Shown in pieces: positions 3,001-61,724 of a stretch of 64,000 nucleotides of DNA. Source of the stretch: Schmidtea polychroa (lineage: Eukaryota); the NCBI GenBank assembly GCA_044892525.1, contig CM097885.1, positions 4,714,001 to 4,778,000 on the forward strand, read 5' to 3'. The stretch's first letter is position 1, and every line of letters begins with the position of its first letter. The notes beneath the pieces were generated by a model. That model ran no database searches and had not been told where the DNA came from. It saw only the letters and a list, made by a program, of their open reading frames with translations. The translations under genes were made by a program, and so were the position numbers.

Positions 3001-3072
3001 GATTCTTGAGGGTGTAAATGTGCAAGTATTGACCAGACGAAACATTTGTTATCATTATTCTGTATGTTTATA
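1..3072 (-). pseudogene. Protein-primed family B DNA polymerase (A1), central/C-terminal part; nonsense codon at 2739; runs off window
   Basis: Near-identical to ORF 50584..54744; CAA>TAA at 2739..2741; split at 3072/3073 by Polinton B. Confidence 0.93.
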
Positions 3073-4802
3073 AGTAGGTAGATAGTAGCCCACGGGAACA
3101 ATTACCCCCCCCCCCCCCGAGGAGGGGTTTGTTCCCAAATTTTTATTACGCAATTGTTCCCAACTCATTTTTTTGCTTTCAGGGAATTTTAGTCCAAATT
3201 TTTTTTTATCACACTATAGTGAGGGGGTCTCGATGGTCCTGGGATTTTCAATACAAAAAAAAATTTTTCAATATAAAAACGATGGTCCTGGGATTTTCAA
3301 TACAAAAAAAATTTTTCAATACAAAAATCCGACTTCCACTAAAAAAGCATGGAATTTTCACACTATAGTGAGAGGGTCTCGATGGTCCTGGGATTTTCAA
3401 TACAAAAAATTTTTTTCTATACAAAAATCCGACTACCACTAAAAAAGCCAAGGATTTTTCAGACTATAGTGAGGAGGTCTCGATGGTCCTGGGATTTTCA
3501 ATACAAAAAAAAATTTTCAATACAAAAACGATGGCCCTGGGATTTTCAATACAAATAAAATTTTTTCAATACAAAAACGATGGTCCTGGGATTTTCAATA
3601 CAAAGCTGGTCTACACTAAAAAGCCAAGGATTTTTCAGACTATAGTGAGGTGAGTCTCCTTGGTCCTGAGAAATAGGTGGTCTACACTAAAAAAGCATGG
3701 TAATTTAAGGTCTCAGGATATTTTCAATACAAAAAGCTGGTCTACACTAAAAAAGCCAAGGATTTTTCAGACTATAGTGAAGTGAGTCTCCTTGGACCTG
3801 AGAAATAGCTGGTCTACACTAAAAAAACGTGGTAATTTAAGGTCTCAGGATATTTTCAATACAAAAAGCTGGTCTACACTAAAAAAGCATGGTAATTTAA
3901 GGTCTCAGGATATTTTCAATATAAAAAGCTGGTCTATACTAAAAAGGCCAAGGATTTTTCAGACTATAATGAGGTGAGTCTCCTTGGTCCTGAGAAATAG
4001 GTGGTATACACTAAAAAAGCATGGTAATTTAAGGTCTCAGGATATTTTCAATACAAAAAGCTGGTCTACACTAAAAAGCATGGTAATTTAAGGTCTCAGG
4101 ATATTTTCAATACAAAAATCTGGTCTACACTAAAAAGCCAAGGATTTTTCAGACTATAGTGAGGTGAGTCTCCTTGGTCCTGAGAAATAGGTGGTCTACA
4201 CTAAAAACATGGTAAATTTTTCAATTAAAGTAAATTAAGGTTCTAAAAATTTCAAATAAAGTAAATTATGGTCCAAATTTTAAAATTAAAGTAAATTATG
4301 GTTCTAAAAATTAAATTATAGTAAATTATGGCTCAAATTTTTCAATTACAGCAAATTATGGTCCTAAAAAATTAAATTAAAGTAAATTATGGCTCAAATT
4401 TTTCAATTACAGTAAATAATGGTTCTTAAAATTGAATTAAAGTAAATTATGGTCCAAATTTTTGAATTAAAGTAAATTATGGTTCTAAATTTTTCAATTA
4501 CAGTAAATTATGGTCCAAATTTTGAATTACAGTAAATTATGGTTCTAAAAATTAAATTAAAGTTAATTAAGGTCCAAATTTTTAAATTAAGTAATCAATG
4601 GTAAAAAATTTTAAATAAGTAAATTAAAGTAAGATTTTAAAATTTATTAACAAAAAGTTGAAGGTGTTTGAGAATTGAAATTTTTTAATGAAAATTTTTA
4701 TGGAATAATTTTTTAAGTAATTTTTAATGGAAATTTTTATGAAATATTTTTCAATGATAATTTTAGATGGAAATTTTTAAGATAATTTTTAATGAAAATT
4801 TT
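3073..4802 (+). repeat. Left TIR of Polinton B, built of tandem sub-repeats
   Basis: Reverse complement of ~17017..18320; units such as GGTCCTGGGATTTTCAATACAAAA and AAAGTAAATTATGG; inner boundary approximate. Confidence 0.88.
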
Positions 4803-4834
4803 TATGAAATATTTTTCAAAGACAAATTTTAATA

Positions 4835-5860
4835 ATAATTCAACAACAAACCAACAACTTAGTACCAACAACCAGTAACTTATGAACATGTATTAACAAC
4901 CAGATACCTACAACTAGTTACTAACAACCAGTTACCTGATACCAGATACCTACAACTGGATACCTACAACTAGTTACCTGATACCAACTACTAACAACCA
5001 CCTACCCATTAACTAGCTACAACTAGCTAACAACTAGCTACCACCTAGCAAGTACTAACAACCACCATCAACCAGGTACTAAGCATTATTAACCAACTAC
5101 CAAGTACTTACAACAAGTTACTAACAACCAGTTACCTGATACCAAGTACCTACAACTAGATACCACGTACTAAATAACTCTCAAACAACCAAGTACCTAC
5201 AACTAATTACCAGATACCAAGTACTATCAACCAGCTAACAACCTGATACCAACTACTCACGACCAGATAACAACTAACAACCAGATACCAAGTACTTACA
5301 ACTAGTTACTAACAACTAGCTACCAACTACTAAGTACTAACAACCAACATCAACCAGGTACTAAGCATTATCAACCAAGTACTAACAACTAGATACCTAG
5401 TTACTAACAACCCGCTAACAACTAACAACTAGATACCAAGTACCAGTAAATTACGAACATGTATTAACAACCAGATACCTACAACTAGTTACTAACAACC
5501 AGTTACCTGATAGCAACCAACTAGCTACCAACTACTAAGTACTAACAACCAACATCAACCAGGTACTAAGCATTAATTACCAACTACTAAGTACCTACAA
5601 CCAACTAACAACCACCTACCAAGTACTAAGCATTATCAACCAACTACTAAGTACCTACAACCAACTAGCTACCACCTACCAAGTACTAACAACCAGTTAC
5701 CAACTACTAAGCATTAATTACCTACAACTAGTTACTAACAACTAGCTACCAAGTACATACAACCAGACACTAAGCATTATCAACCAAGTACTAACAACCA
5801 AGTAACTTACCTAGTACTAAGCACTGTCAACTAGATACCAAACACTTACAACCAGATGAC
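4835..5860. repeat. Strand-biased A/C-rich degenerate minisatellite (AACAACC/TACC/ACTAAG units)
   Basis: Visible reiteration, G-poor on + strand, no ORF. Confidence 0.75.
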
Positions 5861-6169
5861 CACATGAAATTATTGGTTAAATATGAAAATAAGGATTATA
5901 TTTAGTTGTTAAGTAAATTGTGGTGTAAAATTAAGAAATAAAGAATAATTAGTTAAATTAAAGTTAAAAATTTTAAATAAGTAAATTAAGGTTCAAAATT
6001 TAAAATTAAAGAAAACAATGGTTCAAATTTTAAATTAAAGCTAAATGAGTAAATTAAAGTAAGATTTTTAATTTTATTATCAAAAGATTGAATAACCACC
6101 AACATTTTTGAGAAATGTAATTTATAATGAAAATTTAAATGGAAATTTAAATGGAATAATAATAATAAT

Positions 6170-6213
<44 letters not shown>

Positions 6214-9200
6214 TAATAATAATTCAACAGTTACCAACAATCGGTTACTGATTATTTTTTAACTAGGTGCTAACAAATACTTACAACTAGATACCACGTA
6301 CTAACTAACTCTCAAACAATCAGATACTTACAACTAACTACTAAATATTCTTCACTGTATTTTATGAAATGCTTTTTAAATTAATTTTTTATCTATCTTC
6401 AAAAATATATTTAATTACAATCATTAGAAAAACCTTTTCAAATTTAACAAAAATGTTGATTTTCATCAAAAAACCACAACTCATCACCACGTGGAATTCA
6501 AAATAATTACAATGAAAGACTAATGAATTCTAATTTACAAAACATTCTTCTTTTAAATGATAACTTATTATTGCAATGTAAAAATCGCATTCAATAAATA
6601 CTTATTGTTGATCAGTTTTATTATATATACTCTGAGTTTATCCGACAGGATGTTTTGACCCCCCTAAGGGTACAGGTCGTAAGGGTACTGGTCGTAAGGG
6701 TATTAGTCGTAAGGGTACTAGTCGTAGGGGTATTGGTAACACTCAACCCCCATCTACCCATTAACCACCTAACAAGTACCAACAACCAAGTCTCAAACAA
6801 CTAAATACTAAACACTAACAACCAACAACAACCAGGTACTAAGCATTATCAACCTACAACTATATAACAACAATCAGTAAACAACACTGTACCAACTACC
6901 AAATACAAGAAACCAACAACTTAGTACCAACAATCAACTAACAACACATAAAAATAATAGCAATTAAATAAAAAAAATTATTCTTCATCGCATACACTAT
7001 TTTCTTATCAAAATCTAAAAAGTCAACCAACTACTTACAACCTACAACTATGTACTAACAAATTGATCTTTAAAAGCAAATACTCATCACTTGAAAAATT
7101 AGATGGAAAATTATTTGAACTCAAGGCATCAATAACTAGGTAAAATTTGATTAAATTATTGTAAAAATTTAAATTATTCAAAATAAATATCATAAAAATT
7201 TAATTAATGGACAGGAAAAAAATTCTAATCATTAATCATCCAGTAAATAAAAAAAATACTGATCATTCAAGTTGAATCAACTAAGATAATAAATTAATAA
7301 AAGTTTTGAAATAAGATCTAGATTTAGATTGAATAAAATTAATTTTAATTATTTTTGTAAAAGTAATACATGTACTCAAATTGATTAACTGATTTCTCAA
7401 TATATTCAAAAAATCAGTATAAATTCATTACAATTATCAAAGTCAGCAATCTACAATAAAAATAATTATCATTAAATTCCAAAAGAGACTAGATAACTAA
7501 TGATAACATCTAACAAACCAGTAAATTCATTTAAATGGCAATAATTGGTATATCCAAGTGAATTCTCTAATAGAATCATCTAAAAAGCATCATTTTCCCT
7601 AAATATATCAATATTTAAAGATTGGTATTGTAATGATAAATACTTGTTAAAGATCATATATTCTCATCAAACTAATAAGATTCCTTAAAATCCCTTAAAT
7701 GACTATATTTCTACCCTTAATTCATATTATTACAAATAATTCATTAAAATCATCTAAAAAGCATCATTTCCCCTAAATATATCAATATTTAAAGATTGAT
7801 ATTTTAATGATAAGTACCCGTAAAGGATCATATATTCCCCTCAGACTAATAAGATTGCTTAAAGTCCCATTTAAATGACTATAATTCTAACTTTAATTCC
7901 TATTATCACGAATATTTCCCTATAAAACATGTAAAATCATTAACCCTAAATAATTTATAAAATCTAATGATAAAAGTGGTTATAATTAAATTTTTGTTAA
8001 TCACTGTACTCGATATTTTAAATAAATATTACTACAATATAACTGACTAGGTCCTATTGAAAGATTAAATTTATCCATTCAATAAAATATATTTCTTCAA
8101 ATGATCATTTTTACCAATATTCAACCGATTTAATTACTAATTAAAATCAAGATTTCTTCCAATAAAGATCAATTTTATTTAGTCAATGTTTTAAGTCCAT
8201 ATTTCTCAACTTTTGTCGTTGTCCGTCTAAATAAAGATAAAAATAATTTAAAGTTGATATCAATCCCAAATATCTGTAACGTTTTCATCGTCAAAACCAA
8301 GTAAATCGATCATTATCCTTACTTAATAATCCATAAATCTAAATTAATATACAATGAATTAATCACAACCTAATAAAACGATATAATTATTATTGATACA
8401 TAACTGACTAATTGACATTTCCCTTAAAACAATGATATTTTACCAACATCACCATTAAAAAAATCATATATTCCCATCTTAACCGATGTCTCATTAAATT
8501 TAACCGACTATATTCCCATCTTAACCCATCCTTCATTAAATTCAATCGACTATATCTCCCTTACAATGATATATTCCTACCTTATCCGATCTCTCATTAA
8601 ATTCAATCGACTATATCTCCCTTGCAATGATATATTCCCATCTTAACCGATTTCTTATTAAAGTCAATCGACTATATCTCCCTTACAATGATCTATTTCC
8701 ATCTTAACCCATCCCTCATTAAATTTAATAACCGACAATATCCCATCTTATCCGATCTCTCAGCAAATATTTCTACCCTTTTAAACATCTATCCGATTAT
8801 ATCCCTTATTTTCCCTAAAGATTTCACCCACTTGAGCCCTTTAATATATATCAATCCTCTTAAAATCCTCAGAGAACTTCAAAAATCTGACTTTTAATTA
8901 ATTGTTATAGAACCAGACAAATAATAAGAGCCCATTAAAAGATCAAAATTCACTAAATTTTCTACAAATATTTACCATCAAATACTGGAGATGATATATA
9001 TTGATTGATCATAATTCTTCAGCTATTCAACCAATCATTTTCAAGCAATAACAGCAAACTAAATTTCTGTATATCCTATAATAATTATCACGTAAATTTA
9101 AAGTCCTTGATAAAGTTAACTGGTTTCTTAGCTTATGTTTTTTAAAGGGCATCAATGTGTAAATATTCTTAGAAAATTATTCTTAGAAAATTATTTATTC

Positions 9201-10837
9201 AAATATATTACAAAGTTATCATCAAAAATAACTTAATTATTAACCTAATTGTCAATGAAATTAATTTTTATTTAAAAACTATTCAATAAAATACAACTAA
9301 TTATCAAGAAATTAATTAAATTTATCAATTAAATTTATCACCATTAAAACTTTTAATCAGTCAACATGAAATTCTTAGAAAATTATTCAATATCCTCATC
9401 AAAATTTATCCTACCACTTGATTATTGTACAAACTTTAATTATTAACCTCATTAAAAATAAATTTTTATTTAAAATTAAAAAACAAGTCAATAAAAATAC
9501 ATTCAATTATCATGAAATTAATTAAATTTACCTTAGAATTAGCATTAAATTACAGATATTCACAAAAATTACGGAAATTCATGAAAATAATGGAAATCCA
9601 TAAAAATGATAGAAATTCATAAAAACGATAAAAATTCACAAAAATGATAGAAATTCACAAAAATGATAGAAATTTACTTGAATAAAACCATCAACTCTAA
9701 AAATTATCAATACCTTAAACATCAAATTTGCCCAAATAATCATTCAAATAAAAGCATTAAATGATCAGTACCCTTGCGACATGTTGAATGTGAGTAGTAC
9801 CCTTGTGAGCAATACCCATAGGGGGACAGAATATTTTGTCGGATAAACTCAGAGTATATATTAATTAACTCATTCTTCATTGAATTAGTCAAATTATCAT
9901 AAATTTCGATAAAAATTCTAAAGTGGTAAGCAATGTAAAGAGAAATATTCTTTAAACTTTGATAAAATTAACAATGAAGGTGGTAAGAATCTTCATTAAA
10001 GTGAGGAAATTATTCATTACTCGATTCAAATGGGTGAAAATAATTGGTAGAATAATTCATTAATGGATCATTGAATGGGCATAGATAAGAAGAAAGTTGA
10101 TAAGAATGCAAATATATTAATTGAATTTATTTAAAATTATTTCATAAAATTCATAAATTTAATAAAAAAAAGAAATATTTGTGGGGAATAATTAATCAAA
10201 ATCGGGGGGAATATAAGTGATAATAATTAGTGGAAAATAGAGAATCGGGGGGATATAAGTGAGGAGGATATATAATTTAAACTAGTTTATTACATAACAA
10301 CCCGCGACTAGTTTATTACATAACAAGCCGCGTCTAGTTTATTACATAACAAGCTGTGAATGGTATTTTATTGAGAATTATTGATTAGGTCTTTTTTATA
10401 ATTTTTGAATAAGTACTTTAATACCTTAATAATTTAAATGTTTTGATTTACACTAAATAATTTCTAAATCAATTACCCTTTTCAATCAAAATAAGATCAA
10501 TTATATACCTTTTTATAAAATTCAGTTAAAATCAAATACTTTCCACTAAATTTAAAATATATAAATTTTACAAGTTTTTCAAATTTTCAAATAATGTAAA
10601 TAAGAAATTAATCTATTACCAGTTACATACTTATTGACGGAATTACGTAATAGAAATAAAAAGTAACTTAGGTTATTTTTTTTTTCAAAATTATGACTAA
10701 GTCCTTTAATATTGTAATAATAGCTATTTATTAATAAATTTATTATTTTACGTTAAATATTTCAAAAACAATTATCATATTATTAATTATATTACCCTTT
10801 TTAATCAAAATAAGATAACTATTCAAATAGATGATTT

Positions 10838-11161
10838 TTATAAATTACAATAAAAATTAAATACTTTTACACTAAATTTAAAAATATAAATTTTATAAGT
10901 AAATGTGAATAAGAAATAAGTTACTTCTGATTCGCCTAAATTCTCACCTAAATTATTAACAACTTTCAATTGAATATATAACAAAGTATCATTCAAATCT
11001 AAATATTCAGTCTGCGATCCATTTATGTAAAATTGAATCGAAGAAGAACCGGCATCTGTAATTGAATTTCTTGGGTATACATCTTCAAATGCTCCATGTT
11101 CAATCACTGCTTGGGGAGAAGGTCTATCAAAAAGACATAATTCTGATTTAGCACTAATCAT
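10838..11161 (-). pseudogene. Major capsid protein (PY, double jelly-roll) N-terminal ~80 aa only
   Basis: KSELCLF...DVYP...IQFYINGSQTEYLDLNDTLLYIQLKV resembles the Polinton MCP N-terminus; tail below ~10922 derives from a non-coding repeat also present at ~10470..10615. Confidence 0.8.
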
Positions 11162-11556
11162 TTTTCAAAGATGGTACCATATCCTTTCATTCTTTTGTTT
11201 ATATGTTTCTTCATAATTTTTCGGCGTTTAAGTATTCCGCCTTTTTGTTCTTTATCATTTTTAAATACATCGGATACTTTATTAATTACTTCAGGTAAAT
11301 GTTGCATCACAGCTGGTAATGATTCTTTAATTTCAGAAATTGCATTTGATTTTAAAGCAGGCAAGATATTTGCATTGTTATTTATTACGTCATTAGCTGT
11401 TTTCATACCAAAATTTCCTATTCGTCTAAGAATTGGGAGTGCAAATCTACCTATTGTCTTCAACCAACCGGTTCCATATTGTTTACCAACAAAATATGGT
11501 AAATCACCACCCGATTGGTTACTACTATAAAAATGTATTATGTCAGGATTACTCAT
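11158..11556 (-). CDS. Conserved small Polinton virion core protein (PZ-like)
   Basis: Y..QSGGDLPYFVG.QYG.G...IGRFALPILRRIG motif, basic C-terminus, position between penton and MCP. Confidence 0.7.
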   Translation of the reverse strand: MSNPDIIHFYSSNQSGGDLPYFVGKQYGTGWLKTIGRFALPILRRIGNFGMKTANDVINNNANILPALKSNAISEIKESLPAVMQHLPEVINKVSDVFKNDKEQKGGILKRRKIMKKHINKRMKGYGTIFEK

Positions 11557-12565
11557 TTATTTTACGAAAATGTAATGTCAAGTATGTTTTATCTTCTTTT
11601 CCAAATATATATTTTCCACTATCATCTCGTATATTGATTTCTATATTGTTTATATATGAAGACGATACAGGTAAGTACATTGGATTCTTTTCAATTATTT
11701 GTACTAAATCATCTTTTTTATGTTTTTCCACCCAAATACATTTCAAAAGAGGGACCAATGTATCACCAACAATAATAGGTTCGATAATATTTGTATAGAT
11801 CATCAATTGTTGATTGCGTTGTAATACTTCAGGTTCTTTAAAACCAATAATAAGTTTGTCAGTATATGCTTCTTCTAATAAACCTAAACTATTGGCTAAA
11901 AATTTACTAAATTGAACTTTACTGACATCATCATCCATTACAATTTTAACGATTTTTCCTTTTTGAATATCAACAGATTTAAATGGACGAGGATAAAAGA
12001 GTGATAGTTGATCATTTATTTGTGAAAGATCTGTAATGATATTTTCTTCGAATGTATCTGTATACTCGACATCGTAACAATATTGTATAGTTAATCGAAT
12101 TGTATCAAACTTTATTTTTCGATTATTTGGAGGAATAGTGATTTGGTTCAAGGCTTTTTTAAAAGTTATTTCTTTTTCTGAAAATCCCAATTTCTGCGCT
12201 TCTTTAATACTATCGAATTCTACTTTAAAAGGAAAATATTTACAATTAATGTTCAATGTATTTCCATCAATATATATTAAATAAAATGGAGAGTCGTGAC
12301 TGATTGTATATTCATTTTTTTCTTGGTTAAAGTAAAAGTATTCATAACTTGTATGTAATACACTTTTACTATATTTGACATTTGAATTGTTGTAAAAAGG
12401 AAAATAATTATACACAAAGGTAAAGTCCATGAGAGCTACTTCCCATTCACCATCCAAGTAAATAGGATTTTGAAATTCGACATTAAATTTACCAGCTTCA
12501 TTATTTGGATGAGTCTGAGGACAACTATTAGAAGGTAAATTCACATAAAAATCTTTTTTAATCAT
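11549..12565 (-). CDS. Minor capsid protein (PX/penton), paralogue 2
   Basis: FYVNLPSNS...IYLDGEWEVAL N-terminus; YTNIIEP..VGD..VPLL and PMYLPV...IEINIRDDSG...LTLHFRK C-terminus. Confidence 0.87.
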   Translation of the reverse strand: MIKKDFYVNLPSNSCPQTHPNNEAGKFNVEFQNPIYLDGEWEVALMDFTFVYNYFPFYNNSNVKYSKSVLHTSYEYFYFNQEKNEYTISHDSPFYLIYIDGNTLNINCKYFPFKVEFDSIKEAQKLGFSEKEITFKKALNQITIPPNNRKIKFDTIRLTIQYCYDVEYTDTFEENIITDLSQINDQLSLFYPRPFKSVDIQKGKIVKIVMDDDVSKVQFSKFLANSLGLLEEAYTDKLIIGFKEPEVLQRNQQLMIYTNIIEPIIVGDTLVPLLKCIWVEKHKKDDLVQIIEKNPMYLPVSSSYINNIEINIRDDSGKYIFGKEDKTYLTLHFRKINE

Positions 12566-13583
12566 TTATTTTACGAAAATGTAATGTCAAGTGTGTTTTT
12601 GTATCTCTACTAAATTTTATTAATTTTCCACTATCATCTCGTATATTGATTTCAATGTTGTTTATAGAAGAATTAGAAATTGGTAGATACATTGGATTCT
12701 TCATTTCTAGTTGCACAATTTCTCCTTGTTCATATTTTTTTTTCCAAATAGATTTCAATAACGGAACTCTTACATCTCCAACAGTCAATGGTTCGATAAT
12801 ATTTGAGTAAATAAACATTTGTTGATGATGATTAAATAACTTTGGAATTTTTGTTCCAATAATTTCTTTCTCTGTAAATGTTTGTTTCTTTAATCCCAAT
12901 GTTTTTGTTAAATTTTTATCAAAGGTTATTGATGAAATGTTATCAGCAAGACTTATTTTAACCAATTCATTATTTTGTATTTTTAAATCTTTAAAGGGAG
13001 ACGGATTAATTGTCATTAACTGACCATGTATTTCAGATAAAGTATTGATGTATAGTTCATCTTCGAAATAATGTTCAAATTTTGTTTTTTCAACAACACT
13101 TATAATTATACCAAATTGATCAATTGTTTTATCTTCTGTAAATTTTGGTAATTTAATTCGCAAATGATCACTATCACTAATAACCGATACTGATTTTAAT
13201 CCAAATTTAATAGCATGTTCAAAATCTGGAAACGTTATTTTAAATGGAACATGTGGACAAACAACAACCAAATTCTCATATCTTTCAATGAACATGTCAA
13301 CTTCAGGAGTATTTTTAGGATTTATTACTTCAAAGGTTCGATTTGAATTATTTATTCTAAAATATTTAATTTCTTCATCCATCTTTACTTTTTCATATTG
13401 TATCAATGAATTACTGTAATAAGGAAAAGTATTATACACAAAGGTAAAGTCCATGAGAGCTACTTCCCATTCACCATCCAAGTAAATAGGATTTTGAAAT
13501 TCGACATTAAATTTACTAGCTTCATTATCGGGGAAAATAAGAGGACAACTATTAGAAGGTAAAATAATATAAAAATCTTTCAT
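12558..13583 (-). CDS. Minor capsid protein (PX/penton), paralogue 1
   Basis: Same terminal motifs as the neighbouring gene with a divergent middle. Confidence 0.87.
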   Translation of the reverse strand: MKDFYIILPSNSCPLIFPDNEASKFNVEFQNPIYLDGEWEVALMDFTFVYNTFPYYSNSLIQYEKVKMDEEIKYFRINNSNRTFEVINPKNTPEVDMFIERYENLVVVCPHVPFKITFPDFEHAIKFGLKSVSVISDSDHLRIKLPKFTEDKTIDQFGIIISVVEKTKFEHYFEDELYINTLSEIHGQLMTINPSPFKDLKIQNNELVKISLADNISSITFDKNLTKTLGLKKQTFTEKEIIGTKIPKLFNHHQQMFIYSNIIEPLTVGDVRVPLLKSIWKKKYEQGEIVQLEMKNPMYLPISNSSINNIEINIRDDSGKLIKFSRDTKTHLTLHFRKIND

Positions 13584-13588
13584 AATAT

Positions 13589-14737
13589 TTATTTAATCAA
13601 TTGATTTTCGGATATCCAAGATGGAGTTTCATATCCATGCCATTTAACATAGTATTGTTTATATTTACCATCTTTTTTGGTTTTTAAAATCTTTTGAATT
13701 CTAAATATTGTAGGAGCAGGAATTACTTGGAGTTCTTGTTCATAGAATTTACCAGTGATTGGTTTGTTTTCATGATCAACTATCACATACATGACAGGAT
13801 TCTGTTTTGTATCGATTTTAAAAATTTGATATACTTCATCACTCCAATTATTATCAAAGTTTTTGATGAATGGTGAAGAATTGATTTTACTAATTCTTAC
13901 ATGATCACCAACCTTGTATTTCGGTTTATTGATTTTTTCTGACTTTGTTTGATTTTTAGTAAAATCTGCAGGTGTTTGTCCTTTTAATCCTCTGTGTGGT
14001 GAATGATTGTAACTGAAAATAATTTTTGGCAAAACATTTATCCAAGTTTTATTACCTTGATATACAAAATATTTTTTCAAGCGTTCTCTTAAAGTTCGAT
14101 TAAATCGTTCTACGTGAGCAGCTTTGAACTGAGAAAATACTGAGTAATGGTTTATTCCTTTGATAACCTCTTTAACTTTGCTGTTATAAAATTCTTTACC
14201 TAAATCATATATTTAAAAATTAATTAATTAAATTTAATTACCTAAATCCGTTTGTAAATTAATAGGTTTACCATCTCCAAACATTTCTTTTATCGCATCA
14301 GCCATTTCATTTGCAGATTTAGTTTTTGTAGGAACAGCACGAGCATATCTATTAAAAACATCTATACAAGTCAGAATATATTTGTACCCCTTGTTAATTT
14401 TTGAATAAGGTATCATTTCCATCAAATCCATTTGCCATACATCATTGTTTCCAATTGTTTTGTATGGTCTTGTTGGAAAACGTTTCAACATTGGTTTATT
14501 TAAACTATATGCTAATTGATTAGATAACCATTTCTGAGTTTCTTTCTTTGAATTATTCACTCGTTTTGTTAATTTTTCTACGTCACCAAAACCATCTGGA
14601 TCTTTTGGGTTTGTCCATATGGTTTTTAACTTTTTCTCTATTGTTTTCACTTTTTTCACTTTTGTTTTCACATTTGTTTTCACTTTTGTTTTCATTTTTT
14701 CCACTTTTGTGTTGGTTTTGTGATACGTTTCCTTCAT
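13589..14737 (-). CDS. Retroviral-like (rve) integrase with C-terminal chromodomain; two exons (14737..14242, 14199..13589)
   Basis: WQMDLM (D), QTDLG-KEFYN (D) restored by removing GT..AG 14241..14200, HVERFNRT (E), YYVKWHGY..SWI chromodomain; start codon uncertain. Confidence 0.9.
14200..14241 (-). other. Putative 42-nt spliceosomal intron in Polinton B integrase
   Basis: GTAATT...TTTAG on minus strand, contains in-frame TAA, removal restores the DxGxEF motif. Confidence 0.8.
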
Positions 14738-14806
14738 TATTACAACAAGTTGTCAAAATATTAAAATCTACAATATTTTTATTTGGTAATGAACTCTTGA
14801 TACCCA

Positions 14807-15178
14807 TTAAGAACTTAATGATGAGATTGCACTAATTGCAGATAAGACTATAGGAATTAGTGCACCCAAGAACCCTCCTTTTTGTTTATATATTATCTTT
14901 CTCATTAGACGACGATTTTTTGTATCAACTAGAGATAAAAGTGATCTTTTATGTCTTTGCAATACTAATCTTTTAGCTTTAGTTATATTTACATTACCGC
15001 GGACAACATTTATAATAACTTCAAGTAAATCATCAATAACAAATGATGGAAAAGACTGTAAAATTGATATTCGTTTCGAATTTGGTGCCTTTATTAAAGC
15101 ATTAAAATATGGTAAGCTCCGTTCAAATTTCATTATTATTATTAATTTACGCGACGGATTGTTTATAATTTGATCCAC
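14807..15178 (-). CDS. Polinton conserved protein with adenovirus pX-like C-terminal GGFL hydrophobic helix
   Basis: N..RGNV motif and QKGGFLGALIPIVLSAI tail; located between ATPase and integrase; start uncertain. Confidence 0.72.
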   Translation of the reverse strand: MDQIINNPSRKLIIIMKFERSLPYFNALIKAPNSKRISILQSFPSFVIDDLLEVIINVVRGNVNITKAKRLVLQRHKRSLLSLVDTKNRRLMRKIIYKQKGGFLGALIPIVLSAISAISSLSS

Positions 15179-15322
15179 TTCTTGATTTGTTTCTTAGTTT
15201 TTGTACTTTTTGTACTTTTTGTTTTCTTTGTACGTTTTGTTTTCTTGGTAATTTTCTTCGAAACACTTGGAAGATTTTTAACAACTACTTTTTTAAATGA
15301 CATGATTAATTTTATTTAGTTT

Positions 15323-15946
15323 TTAGTTTTGTTTATAAATCGTAACACCGTTTATATTAAAAATATCAGTTCTAATACGCATATCATCTGGACATTGTTG
15401 TGTAAAATCAAAAAATAAATATTCATGAGGAATTTTTGTCGCATCTTGGAATGAATCAATCAAAAATTTTCTATTATTTGGATAAGCTTGTCTTGCAAGA
15501 AAATCTATTATTGTTTGATCTCTAGGATTTTTGAAAATAATTAAATATTGGACATTTAAATTACGTGTTCTATGACTTCCACCTTGATGAAAAAGATTTT
15601 GTGTAATGAAAATAACTGTAACTCCGCAATGTCTACTGATTTTTGTAAATAAATTATTAAAATCTTTTTCTTTATTTGCTTCCTGGTACAGATCATCGAT
15701 AATAATAACATCACCTTGACGTAATCTAGATGACCAATTTTTATCAAATCCTTTAATTATTGTCATTTTTAATTTACAGAAACTGTTTTGAGTCAATCCA
15801 TGTTCTTCATCTGCACCTCGATGCCAATATATTTTATTAAATTTAGATTTAAACATGTTTGATTGTAATAAATTACATACAAATAAAGTTTTCCCGCGTC
15901 CACTAGGTCCTACTATTTGATATACTGCGTCATTTCTTAATTCCAT
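15323..15946 (-). CDS. A32/FtsK-like DNA packaging ATPase
   Basis: Walker A GPSGRGKT, Walker B IIIDD, SRH, ITQN, FKNPRD. Confidence 0.92.
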   Translation of the reverse strand: MELRNDAVYQIVGPSGRGKTLFVCNLLQSNMFKSKFNKIYWHRGADEEHGLTQNSFCKLKMTIIKGFDKNWSSRLRQGDVIIIDDLYQEANKEKDFNNLFTKISRHCGVTVIFITQNLFHQGGSHRTRNLNVQYLIIFKNPRDQTIIDFLARQAYPNNRKFLIDSFQDATKIPHEYLFFDFTQQCPDDMRIRTDIFNINGVTIYKQN

Positions 15947-15996
15947 TTTTTAATTAAATTATTTTATTTAATTTGTTTATAATTACAATAATTAGA

Positions 15997-16473
15997 ATGA
16001 TCAGCAACATTAATTATAGAGGAAGATGTGTAGTAAATGGAATGAAGTTCCCATCAGGAAAACCTCAACATGTCGTGGACAGAAGTGGAAAATATCCAAT
16101 TTTATTCTTCAAGAGCGGGAAATGTAGGATAATGGGATGTAAGAAACCATTACAGGAAGGCGATCTCAAATATCAGATTCAAGATTTACAAATCCAATCA
16201 ATTACATTAACGCTAGATATGGGTACATGCATTGATTTAAATGCATTGTCAAGAAAAACCGATAGTTACTACGAGCCTGAAATATTTCCAGCTTTACGTA
16301 TTCTCAAGTATAACCCCCTATGTGTAAATGTTTTTTCAAGTGGGAAAGTTGTTATATTAGGGATTAAAACATTTGATTATTTTAATCAAATTCAAGAAAT
16401 TCAGAAATTCATTAAATCATTAACTATAAATATCACAACAAATGAAGAAATATTGGAATATTTATTAAGTTAA
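15997..16473 (+). CDS. TATA-binding protein (TBP)-like protein carried by Polinton B
   Basis: Two TBP-like repeats: ILFFKSGKCRIMGCK and YEPEIFPAL...VNVFSSGKVVILG; first ATG at 15997; intronless. Confidence 0.8.
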   Translation: MISNINYRGRCVVNGMKFPSGKPQHVVDRSGKYPILFFKSGKCRIMGCKKPLQEGDLKYQIQDLQIQSITLTLDMGTCIDLNALSRKTDSYYEPEIFPALRILKYNPLCVNVFSSGKVVILGIKTFDYFNQIQEIQKFIKSLTINITTNEEILEYLLS

Positions 16474-16536
16474 TTAAATTAATTTAATTAATTGTGTTTA
16501 AATTAACTGAATATCTACAATAACAAAAATTCAAAA

Positions 16537-16884
16537 ATGGATGACGATAAGCAAGCTTACATATTCCAGACTATATTAACGAAGATGGAAGAATTGTTCC
16601 CGAATATAAGGAACAGACTTTCATATTGTGCTCCGGAATTATTAGCTTATAGAATCAAGCAATTAACGGGGATCAATATAGAAAAACTTATACGAAGACA
16701 TTTCGAATCTGTACAAGAATCAAGATTTAAATGCATAGACGATTGTGAAGTATGTATGGATCGGATGAAATTACCATGTCCGTTTAGATGTAGATGCTGC
16801 CAAGAATATAAGATGAAAGAAGTTGTTCATATTTTACTAGCAGAATTAAGAAGAGCTTATTACAAGCAAATATTGGATGAATAA
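16537..16884 (+). CDS. Hypothetical Cys-rich (putative Zn-binding) protein
   Basis: 115-aa ATG-initiated ORF with CIDDCEVC...CPFRCRCC. Confidence 0.6.
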   Translation: MDDDKQAYIFQTILTKMEELFPNIRNRLSYCAPELLAYRIKQLTGINIEKLIRRHFESVQESRFKCIDDCEVCMDRMKLPCPFRCRCCQEYKMKEVVHILLAELRRAYYKQILDE

Positions 16885-17016
16885 ATTTTATATCTTTACA
16901 TTTGTTATTTGTTTGTGTTTTATGTGTCTAGTTCATTTTTATGTATTTGGTCGATATATTATTATTATTTTTATTATTATTATTCCATAAAAATTTCCAT
17001 TAAAAATTACCATTGA

Positions 17017-18320
17017 AAATTTTCATTAAAAGTTATCTTAAAAATTTCCTTCTAAAATTATCATTGAAAAATATTTCATAAAAATTTCCATTAAAAATTA
17101 CTTAAAAAATTATTTCATAAAAATTTCCATTAAAAAATTTCAATTCTCAAACACCTTCAACTTTTTGTTAATAAATTTTAAAATCTTACTTTAATTTACT
17201 TATTTAAAAATTATTACTTATTTAAAATTTTTTACCATTGATTACTTAATTTAAAATTTAGACCTTAATTAACTTTAATTTAATTTTTAGAACCATTATT
17301 TACTTTAATTGAAAAATTTGGACCATAATTTACTGTAATTTAATTTTTTAGAACCATTATTTACTTTAATTGAAAAATTTGAGCCATAATTTACTTTAAT
17401 TTTAATTTTTGGATCATTATTTACTTTAATTGAAAAACTTGGACCATAATTTACTTTAATTTAAATTTTTGAGCCATTATTTACTGTAATTTAATTTTTT
17501 AGAACCATTATTTACTTTAATTTAAAAATTTGGACCATTATTTACTTTAATTGAAAAATTTACCACGTTTTTTAGTGTAGACCACCTTTTTCTCAGGACC
17601 AAGGAGACCCACCTCACTATAGTCTGAAAAATCCTTGGCTTTTTTAGTGTAGACCAGCTTTTTGTATTGAAAATATCCTGAGACCTTAAATTACCATGCT
17701 TTTTTATTGTAGACCAGCTTTTTGTGTTGAAAAATTTTTTTTTTGTATTGAAAATCCTAGGACCATCGTTTTTGTATTGAAAAATTTTTTGTATTGAAAA
17801 TCCCAGGACCATCGTTTTTGTATTGAAATTTTTTTTTTTGTATTGAAAATCCCAGGACCATCGTGACCCCCCCACTATAGTCTGAAAATTCTATGCTTTT
17901 TTATTGATAGCCGGATTTTTGTATTGAAAAAAATTTTTTGTATTGAAAATCCCAGGACCATCGAGACCCCCTCACTATAGTCTGAAAATTCCTTGGCTTT
18001 TTTAGTGTAGACCAGCTTTTTGTATTGAAAAAAATTTTTTGTATTGAAAATCCCAGGACCATCGAGACCCCTCACTATAGTCTGAAAATTCCTTGGCTTT
18101 TTTAGTGTAGACCAGCTTTTTGTATTGAAAAAAATTTTTTGTATTGAAAATCCCAGGACCATCGAGACCCCCTCACTATCACAATAAAAAAAAATTTGGA
18201 CCAAAAATCCCTGAAAGCAAAAAAATGAGTTGGGAACAATTGCGTAATAAAAAGTTGGGAACAACTCCCCCCCCCCCCCCCCGGGGGGTAATTGTTCCCG
18301 TGGGCTACTATCTACCTACT
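17017..18320 (-). repeat. Right TIR of Polinton B
   Basis: Reverse complement of left TIR with different sub-repeat copy numbers; ends GGGCTACTATCTACCTACT. Confidence 0.88.
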
Positions 18321-19000
18321 TTTATAACATTTTTAGATTTAAAGGGTGTAGGAATATAAGATTTAGGACTAGGTGGTAATCCTCTCCAATAATCAATCAC
18401 TAAAGTTTGGAAAGAGTTGAATACTAAGTTTGAATCTCCTATTTCATTTTCAACCTCTTCTTGTTTTGCTTCTACTGCTTGAATTATTTCTTTGATGGTT
18501 TTATCAAATCCTTTAGTTGAAAATAAATATTTAAAGGGTATTCCAATTTCAACATCTAAAGGTGTTGTCTTTTCTTCTGCTCCTCGCCAGTATTTTGCTT
18601 TGATTATAATTTTATATTTTATAACATTATACCTTGTCGGTTTATAATTTTTTAAAGCTTCAGTGAAAGAATTTTTAATATTTTTTTTATTTTATTTATA
18701 TATTCTCCAGGAGTTATAGGTCCATTGATTTCTAATTGAAATTCATCTACATGATTAAAATCATCCCAGTTATCATTTCTCTCTCTAACATGATCAGGTT
18801 CTCCTTCTGAATGACATTCCTCATCGTCAGAATTTTGTTTTTTATTTTTACATTCTTTTATATGTTCTAAATAATAGAAATTTACTTTTGTTGTAAAGTT
18901 ACAATGAGGACATGTAAATATTTCTCTATTTTTCCCGATACAATTTTCAAAATGTTTATTATATCCAGAATGTAGAAATCTTCCTTTACATTTAGGACAA
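18321..19000 (-). pseudogene. N-terminal part of A1 pPolB (C2H2 fingers), frameshifted, start deleted
   Basis: Matches 53948..54628; frame lost near 18690; joined to TIR sequence at 19000. Confidence 0.9.
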
Positions 19001-19255: not shown

Positions 19256-22142
19256 TTAGACAATATAGAAATAGGACATCCAGTTATAATTTATCCGACT
19301 TAATATATAATCCGTTAGATTAACCCATGAAATTAAAAGACATTAGAAAATTTTAGGCCAAAAATCCCGGCTTAATAATTAACGTTTTTTCTTATGACAA
19401 TAGCAAACAATTAACAGATCCACATTTAGACATTATACATCGTTCCAAAGTTTTAAATGGAACTGTAATTAATTTACTACTATTAAATAAAGGAAACAAT
19501 TTCCATTACGTTGCTATAAGTAATTTAAATAGGTTATTGAATTGTGGTATCAACACTACTTGTCACACACGCATACAATCATTATGGTGCCATCGGTGTT
19601 TGAATGGTTTTAAAAATAGAAACGCACTGGAAAAACATGAAATATTATGTAAACGTAATCAATTAGGAACAACTCTTTACACTTTCCCTCAAAATAAATT
19701 ATTGCAGTTTACTGACTGGTCGAAAACAGTAACTCCTCCTTTTGTAGTTTATGCCGATTTTGAGGCTATTTTACCTTCTGATAATCTTCATTTCCAACAA
19801 CACATGCCAATATCTGCTGGTCTTTTACTTGTAAATAACTTTGATGGATCTAAATCATATCAACAGTTCATAGGTTTAGATTACGTCGAGAGTTTTTTAA
19901 GTGCTATAGAGGATATAGCATTAAATAAGGTTCTTCCTTTTTATTATAAAATGGGTAGGAAACCTATGATTAAATTAACGAAAATTGAACAACATCAATT
20001 TCTTAGTGCTTCCGTTTGCTATCTTTGTTTGAAATCTATCGTCGATCCTGTTAGAGATCACGATCATTTTACGGGGAAATACTTGGGTGCAGCTTGTAGC
20101 ACTTGTAACATAAATAGGAAAATAAATAAAATTTTGCCTATCGTATTTCATAACTTGAAGGGATACGATATGCATCATATACTTAAATACGGATTAAATA
20201 AATTTAAAATTGGACTTTAGGTTGCATCCCAATAACGACTGAAAAATTTATTTCTTTGATTGCTCATTAAGGCAAAATTAGCTTAAGATTCATTGATTCT
20301 TATCAATTTGTCAATGATTCTTTAGCTAAAGCAGTCAAAACTTTGAATTCTTTGCCTTTTACTAATTCTGTTTTTTCTGGTACTATAGTTTCTGAAAAAG
20401 GAATCTTCCCTTATAATTTCGCCACTTCTTTAGATATTCTCCAAACTAATTATGAATTACCACCAATCTGGGAGGGTGTCACTGAGCTTGAGTATGAAAA
20501 AGCTCAGGAGATTTGGGTAGAAACTAACTGCGTAACTTTATTAGATTATATGATGATCTACCTAAAACTTGATTGTTTTCTTTTGGCTGATTTCTTTCAT
20601 CAGTTTCGGTTGAAATCCATTGCTCACAATAGATTGGAACCATTGAATTATTTCGGAATTCCAGGTATGTCTTGGTCTTCTGCATTAATGTCTTTAAATG
20701 AACCAATTGAGCTCATAACTGAAAACGAAATGTTTAGCTTTTATGAGGGTGGAATAAGAGGCGGTCTTACTTTTGTGAATAAGCATTACGTAAAAACCGA
20801 CGAGAACACCGAGTTACTTTATATAGATATTAATAATCTTTATGGTTGGGCTTTAAGTCAATCATTACCTTGTGGCGAATTTAGTTGGGTTCTTCATGGA
20901 TTTGATTTAATAATGGATGAATGTAGGAATTTAAATCTTGAATCTTTGTCTTATGGATACACTCTTGAAGTTGATCTTGTAATTCCATCTGAGCTTCATG
21001 ATAAGTTGGATGATTTCCCTGTAGCTGCTGAAAAAATGAAACCTGTTGGGTCTAAGGTTGAAAAATTATTATTAACTCATCTTCCAAAATCTAATTATGT
21101 GATTCATTGGAGATTATTAAAATTATATTTGGAACTTGGTGTTAAAGTAACACGTGTAAATAGGGGTGTAAGATTTAAGCAATCTCCAATTTTTAAAAAA
21201 TATATAGATACAAATACAGAATTAAGGTCAAAAAGCATAAATAACTTAGATAAAAATTATTATAAATTGCTAAATAACAGTTTATACGGCAAAACAGTTG
21301 AAAATTTAAAGAGAAGAATGAATCTTCGTCTTTGTACAACTGCCGGTAAACTTGTTAAATATTCTTCGAAGCCAACTTTTAAAAAATCTATTAAAATAGA
21401 CGATAATTTAATCGCGGCATTATTGAATTCAGATTCTATATGTTTAGATAGACCAAGTTACATTGGTCAATCTGTACTTGATCTATCTAAACTTAGAATG
21501 TATGAATTGCAATATAAGGATCTGGAATCATTTCGCAATGAGTTTAATTGTAAAATTAATATCGTTGCAGGTAATACAGATTCGTTTTTCCTCGAAGTCA
21601 TTAACTGTAAACTTGAGGTTCTTTTACCTGCAATGATTTGAGATAATTTATTGGATACTTCCAATTACAATAGTTGTCATTCCTTATATAGTAAGAACCT
21701 TGATTCAGTCATTGGAAAGTTCAAAGACGAGAATAAAGGTCTTAAATATAAGGAATGGGTTTTTCTTAGACCTAAATGTTATAGCTTGTTGGGTGATGAG
21801 GAAACAAAAAAGGCTAAAGGTGTAACATTGAAAGGTAGTGACATAAAACATCAGTCATACCTGGATTGTTATAACACTAACCAGATTTTTTCGGTTCCTC
21901 AGACTAAAATAACAAGCAAAAATCATCAAATTTTTACAATTAAAAACACAAAAATAGCACTAACTAACAAAGATGACAAAAGGGTTTGGGTGGGGAAAAA
22001 TACTAGTCTTGCATATGGGCATGTAAGATTAAGTGAATTAAATGTTGGAGAAAATGATGGAGAAGATGAGGAAGAATTAAATGAAGATTTTGGAGAAGAT
22101 GACATCGATATCGATGACGTTATTTTGTCCGATGAGGACTAA
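19256..22142 (+). pseudogene. pPolB of Polinton D (B-related family), 5'-truncated, with frameshift and stops
   Basis: YADFE, DHDHFTGKYLGAAC..CN, FHNLKGYD, YIDINNLYG, KLLNNSLYGK, GNTDS, KGV, DDKR spread over ORFs 19537, 20343 and 21651. Confidence 0.93.
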
Positions 22143-22329
22143 TTTTATTGAATAAATTTTATATCTTTACATTTGTTATTTGGTAAATTTTTATGTTTGT
22201 TATGTGTCTAGTTCATTTTTATGTGTTTAGTTAATGTTTATATGTTTTGTTATGTGTCTAGTTATTTTTATGTGTTTAGTTAATTTTTTATGTGTTGTAT
22301 AGTATTTGGTTGATATATTATTAATATTA

Positions 22330-22373
<44 letters not shown>

Positions 22374-23574
22374 TCATAAAAATTTTCATTAAAAATTATC
22401 TTAAAAATTATTCTATTAAAATTTCCATTAAAAATTATCATTGAAAAATATTTCATTAAAATTTCTATTAAAAATTAATTAAAAAATTTATTTCATAAAA
22501 ATTTCCATTAAAAATTACCATTGAAAAATATTTCATAAAAATTTCCATTAAAAATTATCTTAAAAAATTATTTCATAAAAATTTTCATTAAAAAATTTCA
22601 ATTCTCAAACACCTTCTATTTTTTGTTAATAAATTTAAAAATCTTACTTTAATTTACTTATTACATTACTTTAATTTACTTATTTAAAAATTATTACTTT
22701 AATTTACTTATTTAAAAATTATTACTTTAATTTACTTATTTAAAAATTATTACTTTAATTTACTTATTTAACTTTAATTTAAATTTTTTTTACCATTGAT
22801 TATTTAATTTTTTAGAACCTTAATTTAGTTATTTGTGCCCATTCATTACTTTAATTTAATTTTTTAGGACCATTATTTACTTTAATTGAAAAATTTGGAC
22901 CATAATTTACTTTAATTTAATTTTTTAGAACCATTATTTACTTAATTTAAAAATTTGAACCTTAATTTACTTAGTTGAGCCCTTAATTAACTTTAATTTT
23001 AAATTTTGAACAATTATTTACTTTAATTTAATATTTTAGAAATTAAATTTACTTTAATTTAAAAATTTGGACCATAATTTACTTTAATTGAAAAATCTTA
23101 GCCCATAATTTACTTATTTAGACCATAATTTACTTTATTTCAAAAAAAAATCTGAACCTTGATTTACTTAAATTTTTTAGACCCATCATTTACTTTATTT
23201 TTAAATTTTAGACCCATAATTTGCTTTATTTTAAAAATTTACTATGCGTTTTTAATGTAAACCACCTTTTCTATTGAAATTCTCATGACCATCGAGACCC
23301 CTTCACTATTGTGTGAAAAATCCATGCTTTTTTATTGAAGACTACCTTTTTCTATTGAAATTCTCAGGACCAAGGAGACCCACCCAAATAATATTTATCC
23401 TTGGCTTGTTTATTGAAAAAAAAAAATATGTATTTAAAATCCCAGAAAACATTGGGCATTATGGCAACAATTATGTAATCAAAAAATGTCTAGGAAAAAG
23501 TTATGCAATCAAAATTTTGCAACATTTTTTACCCCCCCCCCCCTATTGTTCCCGTAAGCTACTAACTACCTACT
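19256..23574 (+). mobile_element. Polinton D right half (pPolB plus right TIR)
   Basis: Ends GTTCCCGTAAGCTACTAACTACCTACT at 23574, similar to the B terminus; TIR sub-repeats similar to B; left end absent. Confidence 0.87.
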
Positions 23575-38359: not shown

Positions 38360-38430
<71 letters not shown>

Positions 38431-40012: not shown

Positions 40013-40065
<53 letters not shown>

Positions 40066-40541
40066 ACTTTATAATTATTATTTTATTATTTTCAAGGTCA
40101 TATTATTATTTTTCAAAATATTATTATTTTTCTAAATAGTTTTATTTTCAAGGTCATATTATTATTTTTCAAAATATTATTATTTTATTATTTTCAATAT
40201 CATATTATTATTTTTCAAAATATTATTATTCTCAAGGTCATATTATTACTTTTTCAAATATTATTATTTTCAAGGTCATATTATTATTCTTCAAAATATT
40301 ATTAATTTCAAGGTCATATTATTATTTTTCAAATATTATTATTTTCAAGGTCATATTATTATTCTTCAAAATATTATTAATTTCAAGGTCATATTATTAT
40401 TTTTCAAAATATTATTATTCTCAAGGTCATATCATTATTTGTTCCATATGTTTGAAAAACTGTAGTAGATGTCAGAGTTGTGGTGTCATAATCGATGAAT
40501 CTCATTCAGTGTATTTTGTGAAATTAATGTTGTAAAACTCC

Positions 40542-40629
<88 letters not shown>

Positions 40630-40635
40630 TATTAC

Positions 40636-40695
<60 letters not shown>

Positions 40696-44819: not shown

Positions 44820-44937
<118 letters not shown>

Positions 44938-45168: not shown

Positions 45169-45212
<44 letters not shown>

Positions 45213-46840: not shown

Positions 46841-46888
<48 letters not shown>

Positions 46889-61692: not shown

Positions 61693-61724
<32 letters not shown>

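Follow-up and report, generated by a model that had tools for sequence, protein, structure and literature searches.

The 64,000-nucleotide stretch of Schmidtea polychroa DNA analyzed here (the window; GCA_044892525.1, contig CM097885.1, positions 4,714,001 to 4,778,000) contains a Polinton that encodes a small protein related to the TATA-binding protein (TBP), referred to below as mini-TBP. Our analysis shows that mini-TBP is real, conserved and more specific than first proposed, being a member of a Polinton-borne family that is accompanied by a matching candidate promoter box, YATAAACR. Polintons reside in the nucleus and have no RNA polymerase of their own. We propose, at a probability of roughly 0.6, that mini-TBP may be an element-specific TBP of altered specificity that acts as a late-gene switch through this box. 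The terms “early” and “late” are used throughout as labels by gene type, known here from sequence alone.

The mini-TBP gene and the Polinton that carries it

Mini-TBP is encoded by an intact ORF of 158 amino acids that runs without a stop and requires no intron, as an earlier note on this DNA had described, and the note's placement of the ORF within a Polinton bounded by target site duplications (TSDs) is borne out by the features collected in Table 1. The sequence TTTATA is found on both sides of the family B copy, the matching termini of which begin AGTAGGTAG, and the empty site of the insertion is present at 53948-53953, in the polB gene of the second copy of an A-family Polinton. The hallmarks of Polintons found are terminal inverted repeats, a 6-bp TSD, a retroviral-type integrase, an A32-like packaging ATPase and a double jelly-roll capsid protein, the last present here as a stub. 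No match to polB or to a cysteine protease was found between the termini of the B copy (3073-18320), indicating that this copy is a deleted derivative; Pfam scans detected adenovirus-protease matches in relatives. The ATPase and mini-TBP genes start at 15946 (minus strand) and 15997 (plus strand), 50 bp apart, so the pair lies head-to-head as previously stated.

Table 1. Features of the family B Polinton copy in the window, with the evidence for each
Feature	Position	Strand	Evidence or remarks
Left 6-bp TSD, TTTATA	3067..3072	+	Sequence and empty site
Polinton (family B) copy	3073..18320		Internally deleted; self-BLAST, repeats, termini, comparison with another copy
Repeat-rich terminal inverted repeats	~3073-4839 and 16979-18320		Self-BLAST, repeats
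Major capsid gene stub	10838..11161	-	First 80 codons match 407-aa protein of another copy; match stops near 10921
Box TATAAACA, major capsid	11196..11203	-	42 nt upstream of major capsid gene
Conserved 132-aa ORF, putative core protein	11158..11556	-	Label inferred from position and size
Box TATAAACA, 132-aa ORF	11647..11654	-	98 nt upstream of 132-aa ORF, within coding sequence
Putative minor capsid protein 2, 338 aa	11549..12565	-	Paralog of putative minor capsid protein 1; label inferred
Box TATAAACA, minor capsid 2	12659..12666	-	Inside coding sequence, 101 nt upstream of second ORF; codon test
Putative minor capsid protein 1, 341 aa	12558..13583	-	Label from position and size; no Pfam match
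Box TATAAACA, minor capsid 1	13656..13663	-	80 nt upstream of first putative minor capsid ORF
Retroviral-type integrase region, interrupted (several short frames)	13589..14807	-	Pfam rve, E=2.9e-8
Box TATAAACA, integrase	14883..14890	-	Upstream of integrase region
Adenovirus protein X-like (pX) core protein ORF, 108 aa	14807..15133	-	Pfam Adeno_PX, E=2e-6
Box TATAAACA, pX	15160..15167	-	34 nt upstream of pX-like ORF
Two boxes, pX region (15330..15356)	TATAAACA 15330-15337; TATAAACG 15349-15356	-	Within end of ATPase ORF, upstream of pX
A32-like packaging ATPase, 207 aa	15323..15946	-	Pfam Pox_A32, E=8.8e-6
Box TATAAACA, ATPase	15974..15981	-	35 nt upstream of ATPase ATG, in 50-bp intergenic gap
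Mini-TBP ORF, 158 aa	15997..16473	+	ATG 15997, stop 16473; uninterrupted, no intron required
Cysteine-containing ORF, 115 aa	16537..16884	+	Downstream of mini-TBP; no Pfam match; only in subfamilies of S. polychroa genome
Right 6-bp TSD, TTTATA	18321..18326	+	Sequence

The full-length 407-aa homolog of the capsid stub, taken from another copy, is predicted to form a double jelly-roll (pLDDT 73), and Foldseek searches with its model returned iridovirus and PBCV-1 capsid proteins, with E=4e-16 to an iridovirus capsid; the TM-score is 0.60. A PDB sequence search with the capsid alignment gave no match, and it was the fold search that settled the identity of this protein. Homologs of the putative minor capsid proteins sit between the integrase and major capsid protein (MCP) genes in metagenome loci. 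The tandem paralogous arrangement of the two putative minor capsid genes (12558-13583, 11549-12565) is shared with locus L050, which carries the same duplication.

The B element sits inside the polB gene of an A-family Polinton (flanks 1-3072 and 18321-19000), one Polinton being nested within another. The second A-family copy, with termini at about 34308 and 55756, supplies the empty site from its polB region (50584-54744) and is interrupted at 37600-47100 by a long, nearly palindromic, repeat-rich insertion whose arms are 97-99% complementary. A 2.6-kb duplication (99%) at 22024-24643 and 61387-64000 contains a fragment of a reverse transcriptase along with a terminal repeat of B-like type. 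Positions 4840-10840 comprise 6 kb of repeat-rich, nearly ORF-free sequence where other copies have the remaining capsid gene; this region includes 14-nt tandem repeats and pieces resembling the termini of other elements. The B insertion site reads TATAAAC on the minus strand, but a target-site preference for the box was rejected, as the flanks of 27 termini from 30 loci show none.

The synteny in other B copies that the note had suggested as a check was found. All 150 scored places in the 781-Mb S. polychroa genome match mini-TBP at 99-100% identity, 149 of them stop-free; these were 150 of 4206 candidate places, so the genome holds at least 150 near-identical copies. The same neighbors surround the gene in each of the 30 loci fetched, including the window locus itself. 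Further Polinton subfamilies in this genome carry mini-TBP at ~58-64% identity (L117, L122, L156, L157, L159, and L164), and in two fetched copies (L155, L157) the gene is split by stops or frameshifts. Among ten B-type ATPase loci sampled in the genome, nine have mini-TBP head-to-head with the ATPase, and the tenth has a transposase-like ORF instead within the 1.6 kb examined. A head-to-head layout as a trait of the whole family is ruled out, since the two genes lie on the same strand in 22 of the 25 metagenome loci holding both; the layout is thus local and typical of the S. polychroa genome. The idea of a conserved partner gene beside mini-TBP was also discarded, as the 115-aa neighbor is unmatched in 80 outside loci. 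The most widespread unlabelled gene family among mini-TBP loci occurs in 17 lineages, and no partner is claimed.

Fold, surfaces and descent of the mini-TBP family

The assignment of mini-TBP to the TBP fold, as put forward in the note, was upheld by sequence and structure searches. Pfam TBP (PF00352) matches a single stretch at residues 64-130 (E=3.4e-16; score 59.3 bits, curated cut-off 22.9), all 35 matches in a PDB sequence search are TBPs or TBP fusions, and a search of the ESM Atlas led to TBP clusters only. An AlphaFold model built from a 91-row alignment (pLDDT 95.2, pTM 0.83) has TBPs as its top 44 Foldseek matches, and VIA-align superposes model residues 1-147 on yeast TBP 66-240 (145 residues aligned, Z 12.7, rmsd 2.5). 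The model thus predicts a two-lobe beta-sheet saddle that aligns across both lobes of solved TBPs. Both of the TBP-like repeats recognized earlier are present (FKSGKCRIMG at residues 38-47 and YEPEIFPAL...VFSSGKVVILG at 92-122), but they are unequal: the second is complete, while the first keeps its strands without both helices.

The alignment of 145 residues within yeast TBP 66-240 leaves some 30 TBP residues with no counterpart in mini-TBP. In the AlphaFold model only strands are seen to residue 74, followed by a helix, further strands and a long final helix, with the first helix appearing not before residue 81; model and alignments together place a helix-less N-lobe at about residues 1-60 and a complete C-lobe at about 62-145. 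The spacing of landmark residues agrees with this division. The N69-F116 interval of the N-lobe has a median of 47 in 32 two-lobe TBPs vs 36 in 90 of 91 family members, and the G125-Q158 interval 33 vs 20, so that the N-lobe intervals of the family are shorter by medians of 11 and 13 residues; the C-lobe interval has a median of 48 in both groups. Together, the model and the short N-lobe spacings indicate that both N-lobe helices are absent throughout the mini-TBP family, which departs in this respect from the canonical TBP arrangement of two helices per lobe.

Residues at the expected DNA interface are largely fixed within the family and differ from those of cellular TBPs. Yeast numbering was tied to our data via the VIA-align offsets and a canonical proxy sequence, and the yeast numbers and the list of DNA-facing positions placed on mini-TBP are those which we take to be standard. 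On this basis, N6 (88/91), R44 (89/91), and M46 (91/91) are fixed in the N-lobe, as are S68 (88/91), T70 (84/91), R101 (90/91), C109 (91/91), and N111 (91/91) further along; two-lobe TBPs carry V, V, T, N, V, I, V, and L at the respective positions, presumably yeast V71, V122, T124, N159, V161, I194, V203, and L205. Non-canonical residues at positions predicted to face DNA are therefore fixed in both lobes. The intercalating phenylalanines F38 (90/91), F97 (90/91), and F113 (91/91) are kept, while the slot of yeast F99 is occupied by K, S, P or R with no conserved Phe, the alignment register being unsure there; near this slot F18 is conserved, and an aromatic residue occurs at 19-24 in 35 of 91 members. 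As the first intercalating Phe appears to have no conserved counterpart, DNA binding by mini-TBP may be weak or different. R101, C109, and N111 map onto yeast I194, V203, and L205, which according to the accessible text of PMC1636458 are the three positions substituted in the altered-specificity mutant TBPm3; the same source states that the C-lobe of TBP reads the TATA box's 5' half and the N-lobe its 3' half.

According to the accessible text of PMC7221094, TFIIA, Mot1, TAF1, and Brf1/2 share a docking site at N-lobe helix 2 and loop 2, and TBP binds TFIIB through two glutamates of its C-lobe. This glutamate pair is kept in mini-TBP (E93 in 87/91 with D in the other four, E95 in 90/91), and contact with TFIIB is accordingly predicted. 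Mini-TBP could also be imagined as a decoy or repressor, binding host TFIIB or occupying host or element promoters and so damping host or late-gene transcription. The retention of the TFIIB glutamates in a protein that has lost its activator and TFIIA surface would suit such a role, as would the apparent lack of one intercalating Phe and the presence of at least 150 near-identical copies in the genome. A decoy would leave the invariant non-canonical DNA-facing residues of both lobes unexplained, and if mini-TBP were a repressor, the box would still need an activator. Pfam scans found no other conserved transcription-factor family (C2H2 and KilA-N occur in one sub-clade only); we consider this explanation distinctly unlikely. 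The note's suggestion that the protein competes with host TBP drew no direct support, because the DNA-facing residues of mini-TBP differ from those of TBP.

Outside the genome, searches over a range of 86-277 aa recovered 123 proteins at E<=0.001, mostly of 144-165 aa, and a representative library gave 114 matches at E<=1e-10. A metagenome scan yielded 79 loci, including five weak two-lobe-type matches (L105-L109). At least one Polinton marker is carried by 33 of the 79 (ATPase 25, integrase 17, minor capsid 13, MCP 7, polB 6), and the loci with no marker are mostly short contigs. Scans of viral contigs identified no mini-TBP elements: the family profile matched a single two-lobe TBP (L110), and four of six other scans were empty. 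One clade of loci (L060, L061, L065, L068, and L073) has a signal-peptide-like leucine-rich-repeat ORF two genes after mini-TBP, and another (L080-L099) has PLA2-domain, KilA-N and C2H2 ORFs. Two Polinton contigs (L177, L178) lie within bacterial metagenome-assembled genomes and are probably mis-binned eukaryotic or viral DNA.

The family is, as judged by codon substitution, under purifying selection: of 20 pairs listed at >58% identity, the 16 that were not saturated have dN/dS of 0.09-0.32. In a quick IQ-TREE run of 62 rows (27 mini-TBPs, two host paralogs, and 33 other two-lobe TBPs, with “eukaryote” and “archaea” labels given by eye), the 27 mini-TBPs form one side of a long branch with SH-aLRT 99, apart from the host paralogs and the other two-lobe TBPs. 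Nearest to them, with no branch support, are two TBPs of 171-174 aa. This placement speaks against the earlier view of mini-TBP as a captured basal factor, if a recent capture from the host is meant. Six host TBP-family loci (L111-L116) lie apart from the elements, of which at least L112 and L116 are intronless and divergent, with 33-40% identity to canonical TBP.

The YATAAACR box before virion and integration genes

Within window positions 10800-16950, TATAAAC occurs nine times on the structural-gene strand and never on the other, with at least one occurrence before each gene of the cassette, and ATAAAC occurs 12 times vs 2. The pool used to follow this motif across lineages drew on 74 loci from metagenomes, together with the cassette in the window and six stretches elsewhere in the genome. 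One gene per lineage was counted in 51 lineages (<80% identity), with starts chosen by homology and with genes having <125 nt upstream or no fitting ATG left out, and the box was scored when ATAAAC was present on the sense strand between 120 and 11 nt upstream. By this measure the motif precedes 78 of 82 late-type genes (capsid, core, packaging, integrase, and protease-like), namely ATPase 23/23, MCP 9/9, core 8/8, pX 8/8, minor capsid 15/16, integrase 12/14, and protease-like 3/4, as opposed to only 4/50 mini-TBP genes and 0/4 polB genes. A candidate promoter motif with this distribution is in keeping with the idea of element-specific transcription raised in the note. ATAAAC is the top upstream 6-mer relative to dinucleotide shuffles (78 seen, 8.3 expected, z=34.6). 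Its 83 sites are preceded by T in 52, C in 25, G in 4, and A in 2, and followed by A in 72, G in 9, and T in 2, giving YATAAACR.

A trivial origin for the motif, in codon use, AT-richness or the polyadenylation signal of the upstream gene, with the TBP-like gene as a passenger, would draw on the facts that coding sequence close to the end of the preceding gene holds many of the boxes and that the DNA is AT-rich. At these embedded sites, however, Ile-Asn is written ATA AAC in 7/7 minor-capsid and 7/7 core sites vs 26/279 elsewhere; other embedded sites are less uniform, with ATA AAC at 1/3 MCP gene ends and a mixed integrase site that has the box in 4/7. The polyadenylation signal AATAAA precedes 16 of the 82 late-type genes, A precedes the box in 2/83 sites, and the box precedes the ATPase even where there is no co-oriented upstream gene. 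The purifying selection on the mini-TBP ORF is also at odds with a passenger. This explanation is largely refuted by the 6-mer, codon and dN/dS tests, and we regard it as highly improbable.

Spacing and orientation bear on another alternative, in which the box is a site for an unrelated host factor such as a Forkhead protein, or for helper-virus machinery, with mini-TBP not being its reader. The Forkhead consensus is RYAAAYA, which the commonest form of the box, ATAAACA, matches (A follows the box in 72/83 sites). Forkhead proteins bind GTAAAC too, yet this sequence is found upstream of only 1/82 late-type genes, and reverse-oriented ATAAAC likewise of 1/82. The distance from the box to the ATPase ATG is tight, mostly 31-37 nt, and 21 of the 24 sites fall between -31 and -40, which argues for core-promoter rather than enhancer behavior. 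A helper would have precedent in some Polinton-like viruses that need larger viruses, according to the accessible text of PMC11296320. Overall, we judge a reader of this kind very unlikely. The box is positioned, oriented, and synonymously constrained, and it lies before virion and integration genes.

The mini-TBP genes themselves are preceded by different sequences. A canonical TATA is commoner before them (22/50) than before late-type genes (8/82), consistent with possible host-type early promoters; that no more than 22/50 have one, and that some late-type genes have one too, counts against the switch proposed below. Among the mini-TBP upstreams of L031-L104, many have an ordinary TATA, 14/50 have CCAAT, and TCAT is often seen just before the ATG.

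The co-occurrence of gene and box extends to a locus outside the sample. L177 (44% GC), found by its ATPase, has mini-TBP and carries the box at -37 of the ATPase, -35 of pX, and -64 of the integrase, as well as before two other ORFs, though not before mini-TBP. The TBP-less controls, which are few and distant (one in-genome family in three copies and five virus contigs, L175 being left out as a near-copy of L174), show ATAAAC upstream of 0/10 genes in the A-family Polinton of the S. polychroa genome and of 5/78 ORFs and 0/4 ATPases in the virus contigs. One of the ten in-genome ATPase loci, L164, has mini-TBP with an ATPase that lacks the box; it was dropped from the pooled count as a near-copy. 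Because the lineages are related, Fisher P values for the association overstate the case. Close Polinton relatives lacking mini-TBP were not found among the ten in-genome B-type ATPase loci sampled, so that common descent could by itself account for gene and box being found together. As seen from these genomes, mini-TBP and the box are linked by correlation, in a single Polinton clade.

A proposed late-gene switch and its relation to known systems

In the scheme we propose, host TBP would first transcribe the mini-TBP gene from a host-type promoter. Mini-TBP would then bind YATAAACR in the minor groove, preferring it over TATAAAAG or random AT-rich DNA, and its remodelled N-lobe would tolerate a C at position 7, a base that would be poorly handled by host TBP. 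Through its intact C-lobe stirrup it would recruit host TFIIB and Pol II, and in lacking the N-lobe helices it would escape Mot1, TAF1, TFIIA, and Brf1, so that expression of the virion and integration genes would have to wait for the element's own factor. The box deviates from TATA mainly at position 7, which would lie under the N-lobe, the most altered half of the protein, and this fit is suggestive. Whether a large animal-type Polinton clade as a whole possesses such a minimal orthogonal switch, consisting of one TBP of 145-165 aa with no N-lobe regulatory face, its saddle reprogrammed to YATAAACR and working with host TFIIB and Pol II, is in our estimation an even proposition.

The origin of the TFIIB in this scheme was approached by Pfam, which detected no TFIIB in 72 of 168 listed ORFs (16 loci) or in 26 window ORFs while matching the host control; most ORFs outside the scan belonged to known marker genes or to frames overlapping others, the loci are incomplete elements, and a divergent TFIIB could escape. 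This result favors host TFIIB, though it falls short of proof. The genome has 13 places with intronless TFIIB-like frames, each 301-310 codons long, in two clusters at C3 38-39 Mb and C1 23.8-24.2 Mb. The frame examined (L170:872-1777, G000:C3) matches both a zinc ribbon and TFIIB repeats, and the 3 kb retrieved with it hold no Polinton gene. Among host TFIIB-type loci, L168 resembles Brf1 and L171 is split by introns.

The box might instead be a core promoter that host TBP or a paralog reads as a deliberately weak TATA, with mini-TBP doing something else or only helping. Wild-type TBP binds a C(-25) TATA variant via a Hoogsteen pair (PDB 1QN3; accessible text of PMC8643651), C(-25) corresponding to box position 7 as we understand the PDB title, and in one plant assay TATAAACG still gave 27% activity (accessible text of PMC10005294); host TBP could thus serve the box weakly. 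The six host TBP-family loci and 13 intronless TFIIB-like frames would offer candidate readers. Against this, it is the C at position 7 that defines the box, the 78/82 genes with ATAAAC far exceeding those with ATAAAT (14/82), ATAAAA (12/82) or ATAAAG (8/82). In a third of the sites the first base is C or G instead of T (25 C, 4 G of 83), which according to the accessible text of PMC10005294 would weaken a host TATA further, and the box is kept where the ATPases are 36-39% identical to that of the window and the hosts are probably different. We find a weak host TATA unlikely, and favor mini-TBP as the reader of the box.

If this interpretation is correct, a dedicated TBP and its cognate box would provide a concrete mechanism and a sequence tag for the late genes of this clade. 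They would also be the first point of control put forward for the virion genes of Polintons, and we know of no smaller system for viral late transcription. Mini-TBP would be a natural TBP with both helices of one lobe deleted, and thus a natural experiment on TBP, combining a stable predicted fold lacking the N-lobe helices with substitutions at the three sites of TBPm3. If orthogonal, the protein and box would form a compact tool with which to study or build insulated Pol II promoters.

The question of a prior report, left open in the note, has a divided answer. A “TBP” gene is labelled in a figure legend of the 2021 adintovirus paper of Starrett et al. (PMC8502044); beyond that legend, the accessible main text has no mention of TBP and “promoter” is absent from it, and the readable part of the supplement has no TBP label. 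A figure or supplement of that paper could show the mini-TBP family. In the “promoter” and “TATA” passages of the Polinton papers available to us, the switching of capsid genes is not discussed, and a word search of the accessible text of PMC11296320, PMC11161782, PMC8097293, and 10.64898/2026.10.13.758929 gave no mention of TBP or TATA. The accessible text of PMC10675990 mentions TATA-binding proteins in mirusvirus-like elements. Literature searches, whose coverage excludes most subscription journals, returned no description of a helix-less TBP family or of the box. The mini-TBP architecture and its box thus look undescribed in the searchable literature, while a TBP gene has been labelled once in print.

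A comparison with known systems shows both similarities and disparities. The elements resemble the adintoviruses, Mavericks and Polintons of PMC8502044, as far as its accessible text describes them, in possessing integrase, packaging ATPase, double jelly-roll capsid, pX-like and PLA2-domain genes. Like cellular TBPs (eukaryotic TBP and TRF, archaeal TBP), mini-TBP has a two-lobe saddle with a complete C-lobe, the TFIIB glutamates and three of the four intercalating Phe residues. Unlike them, it lacks some 30 core residues, both N-lobe helices among them, has eight altered DNA-facing positions, lies on a separate long branch and is encoded by a mobile element. Nucleocytoviricota TBPs, which are among the structural matches of mini-TBP in BFVD, also lack the eukaryotic N-lobe regulatory patch, a loss proposed to evade Mot1 (Ravarani et al. 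2020; accessible text of PMC7221094, in which “Polinton” has 0 occurrences). According to the same text these proteins have two full lobes, possess the first glutamate in ~40% of cases and are nearly all accompanied by a viral TFIIB; in mini-TBP, unlike these, the helices are deleted, the glutamates are kept in 87/91 and 90/91, and no TFIIB was found among the ORFs scanned. The closest functional analogy may be with KSHV ORF24, EBV BcRF1, and HCMV UL87 and their TATT late promoters, where, in the accessible sources, a viral TBP mimic and a TATA variant serve structural genes using host Pol II, an arrangement that mini-TBP and its box would share by inference. Herpesvirus vTBP homologs are weak structural matches to mini-TBP (E 3e-3 or worse). 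In place of a six-protein complex with a large vTBP and a TATT box, the Polinton system has a 158-aa protein that keeps the TFIIB stirrup and a top upstream 6-mer, ATAAAC, that deviates from TATA at position 7 rather than at position 4.
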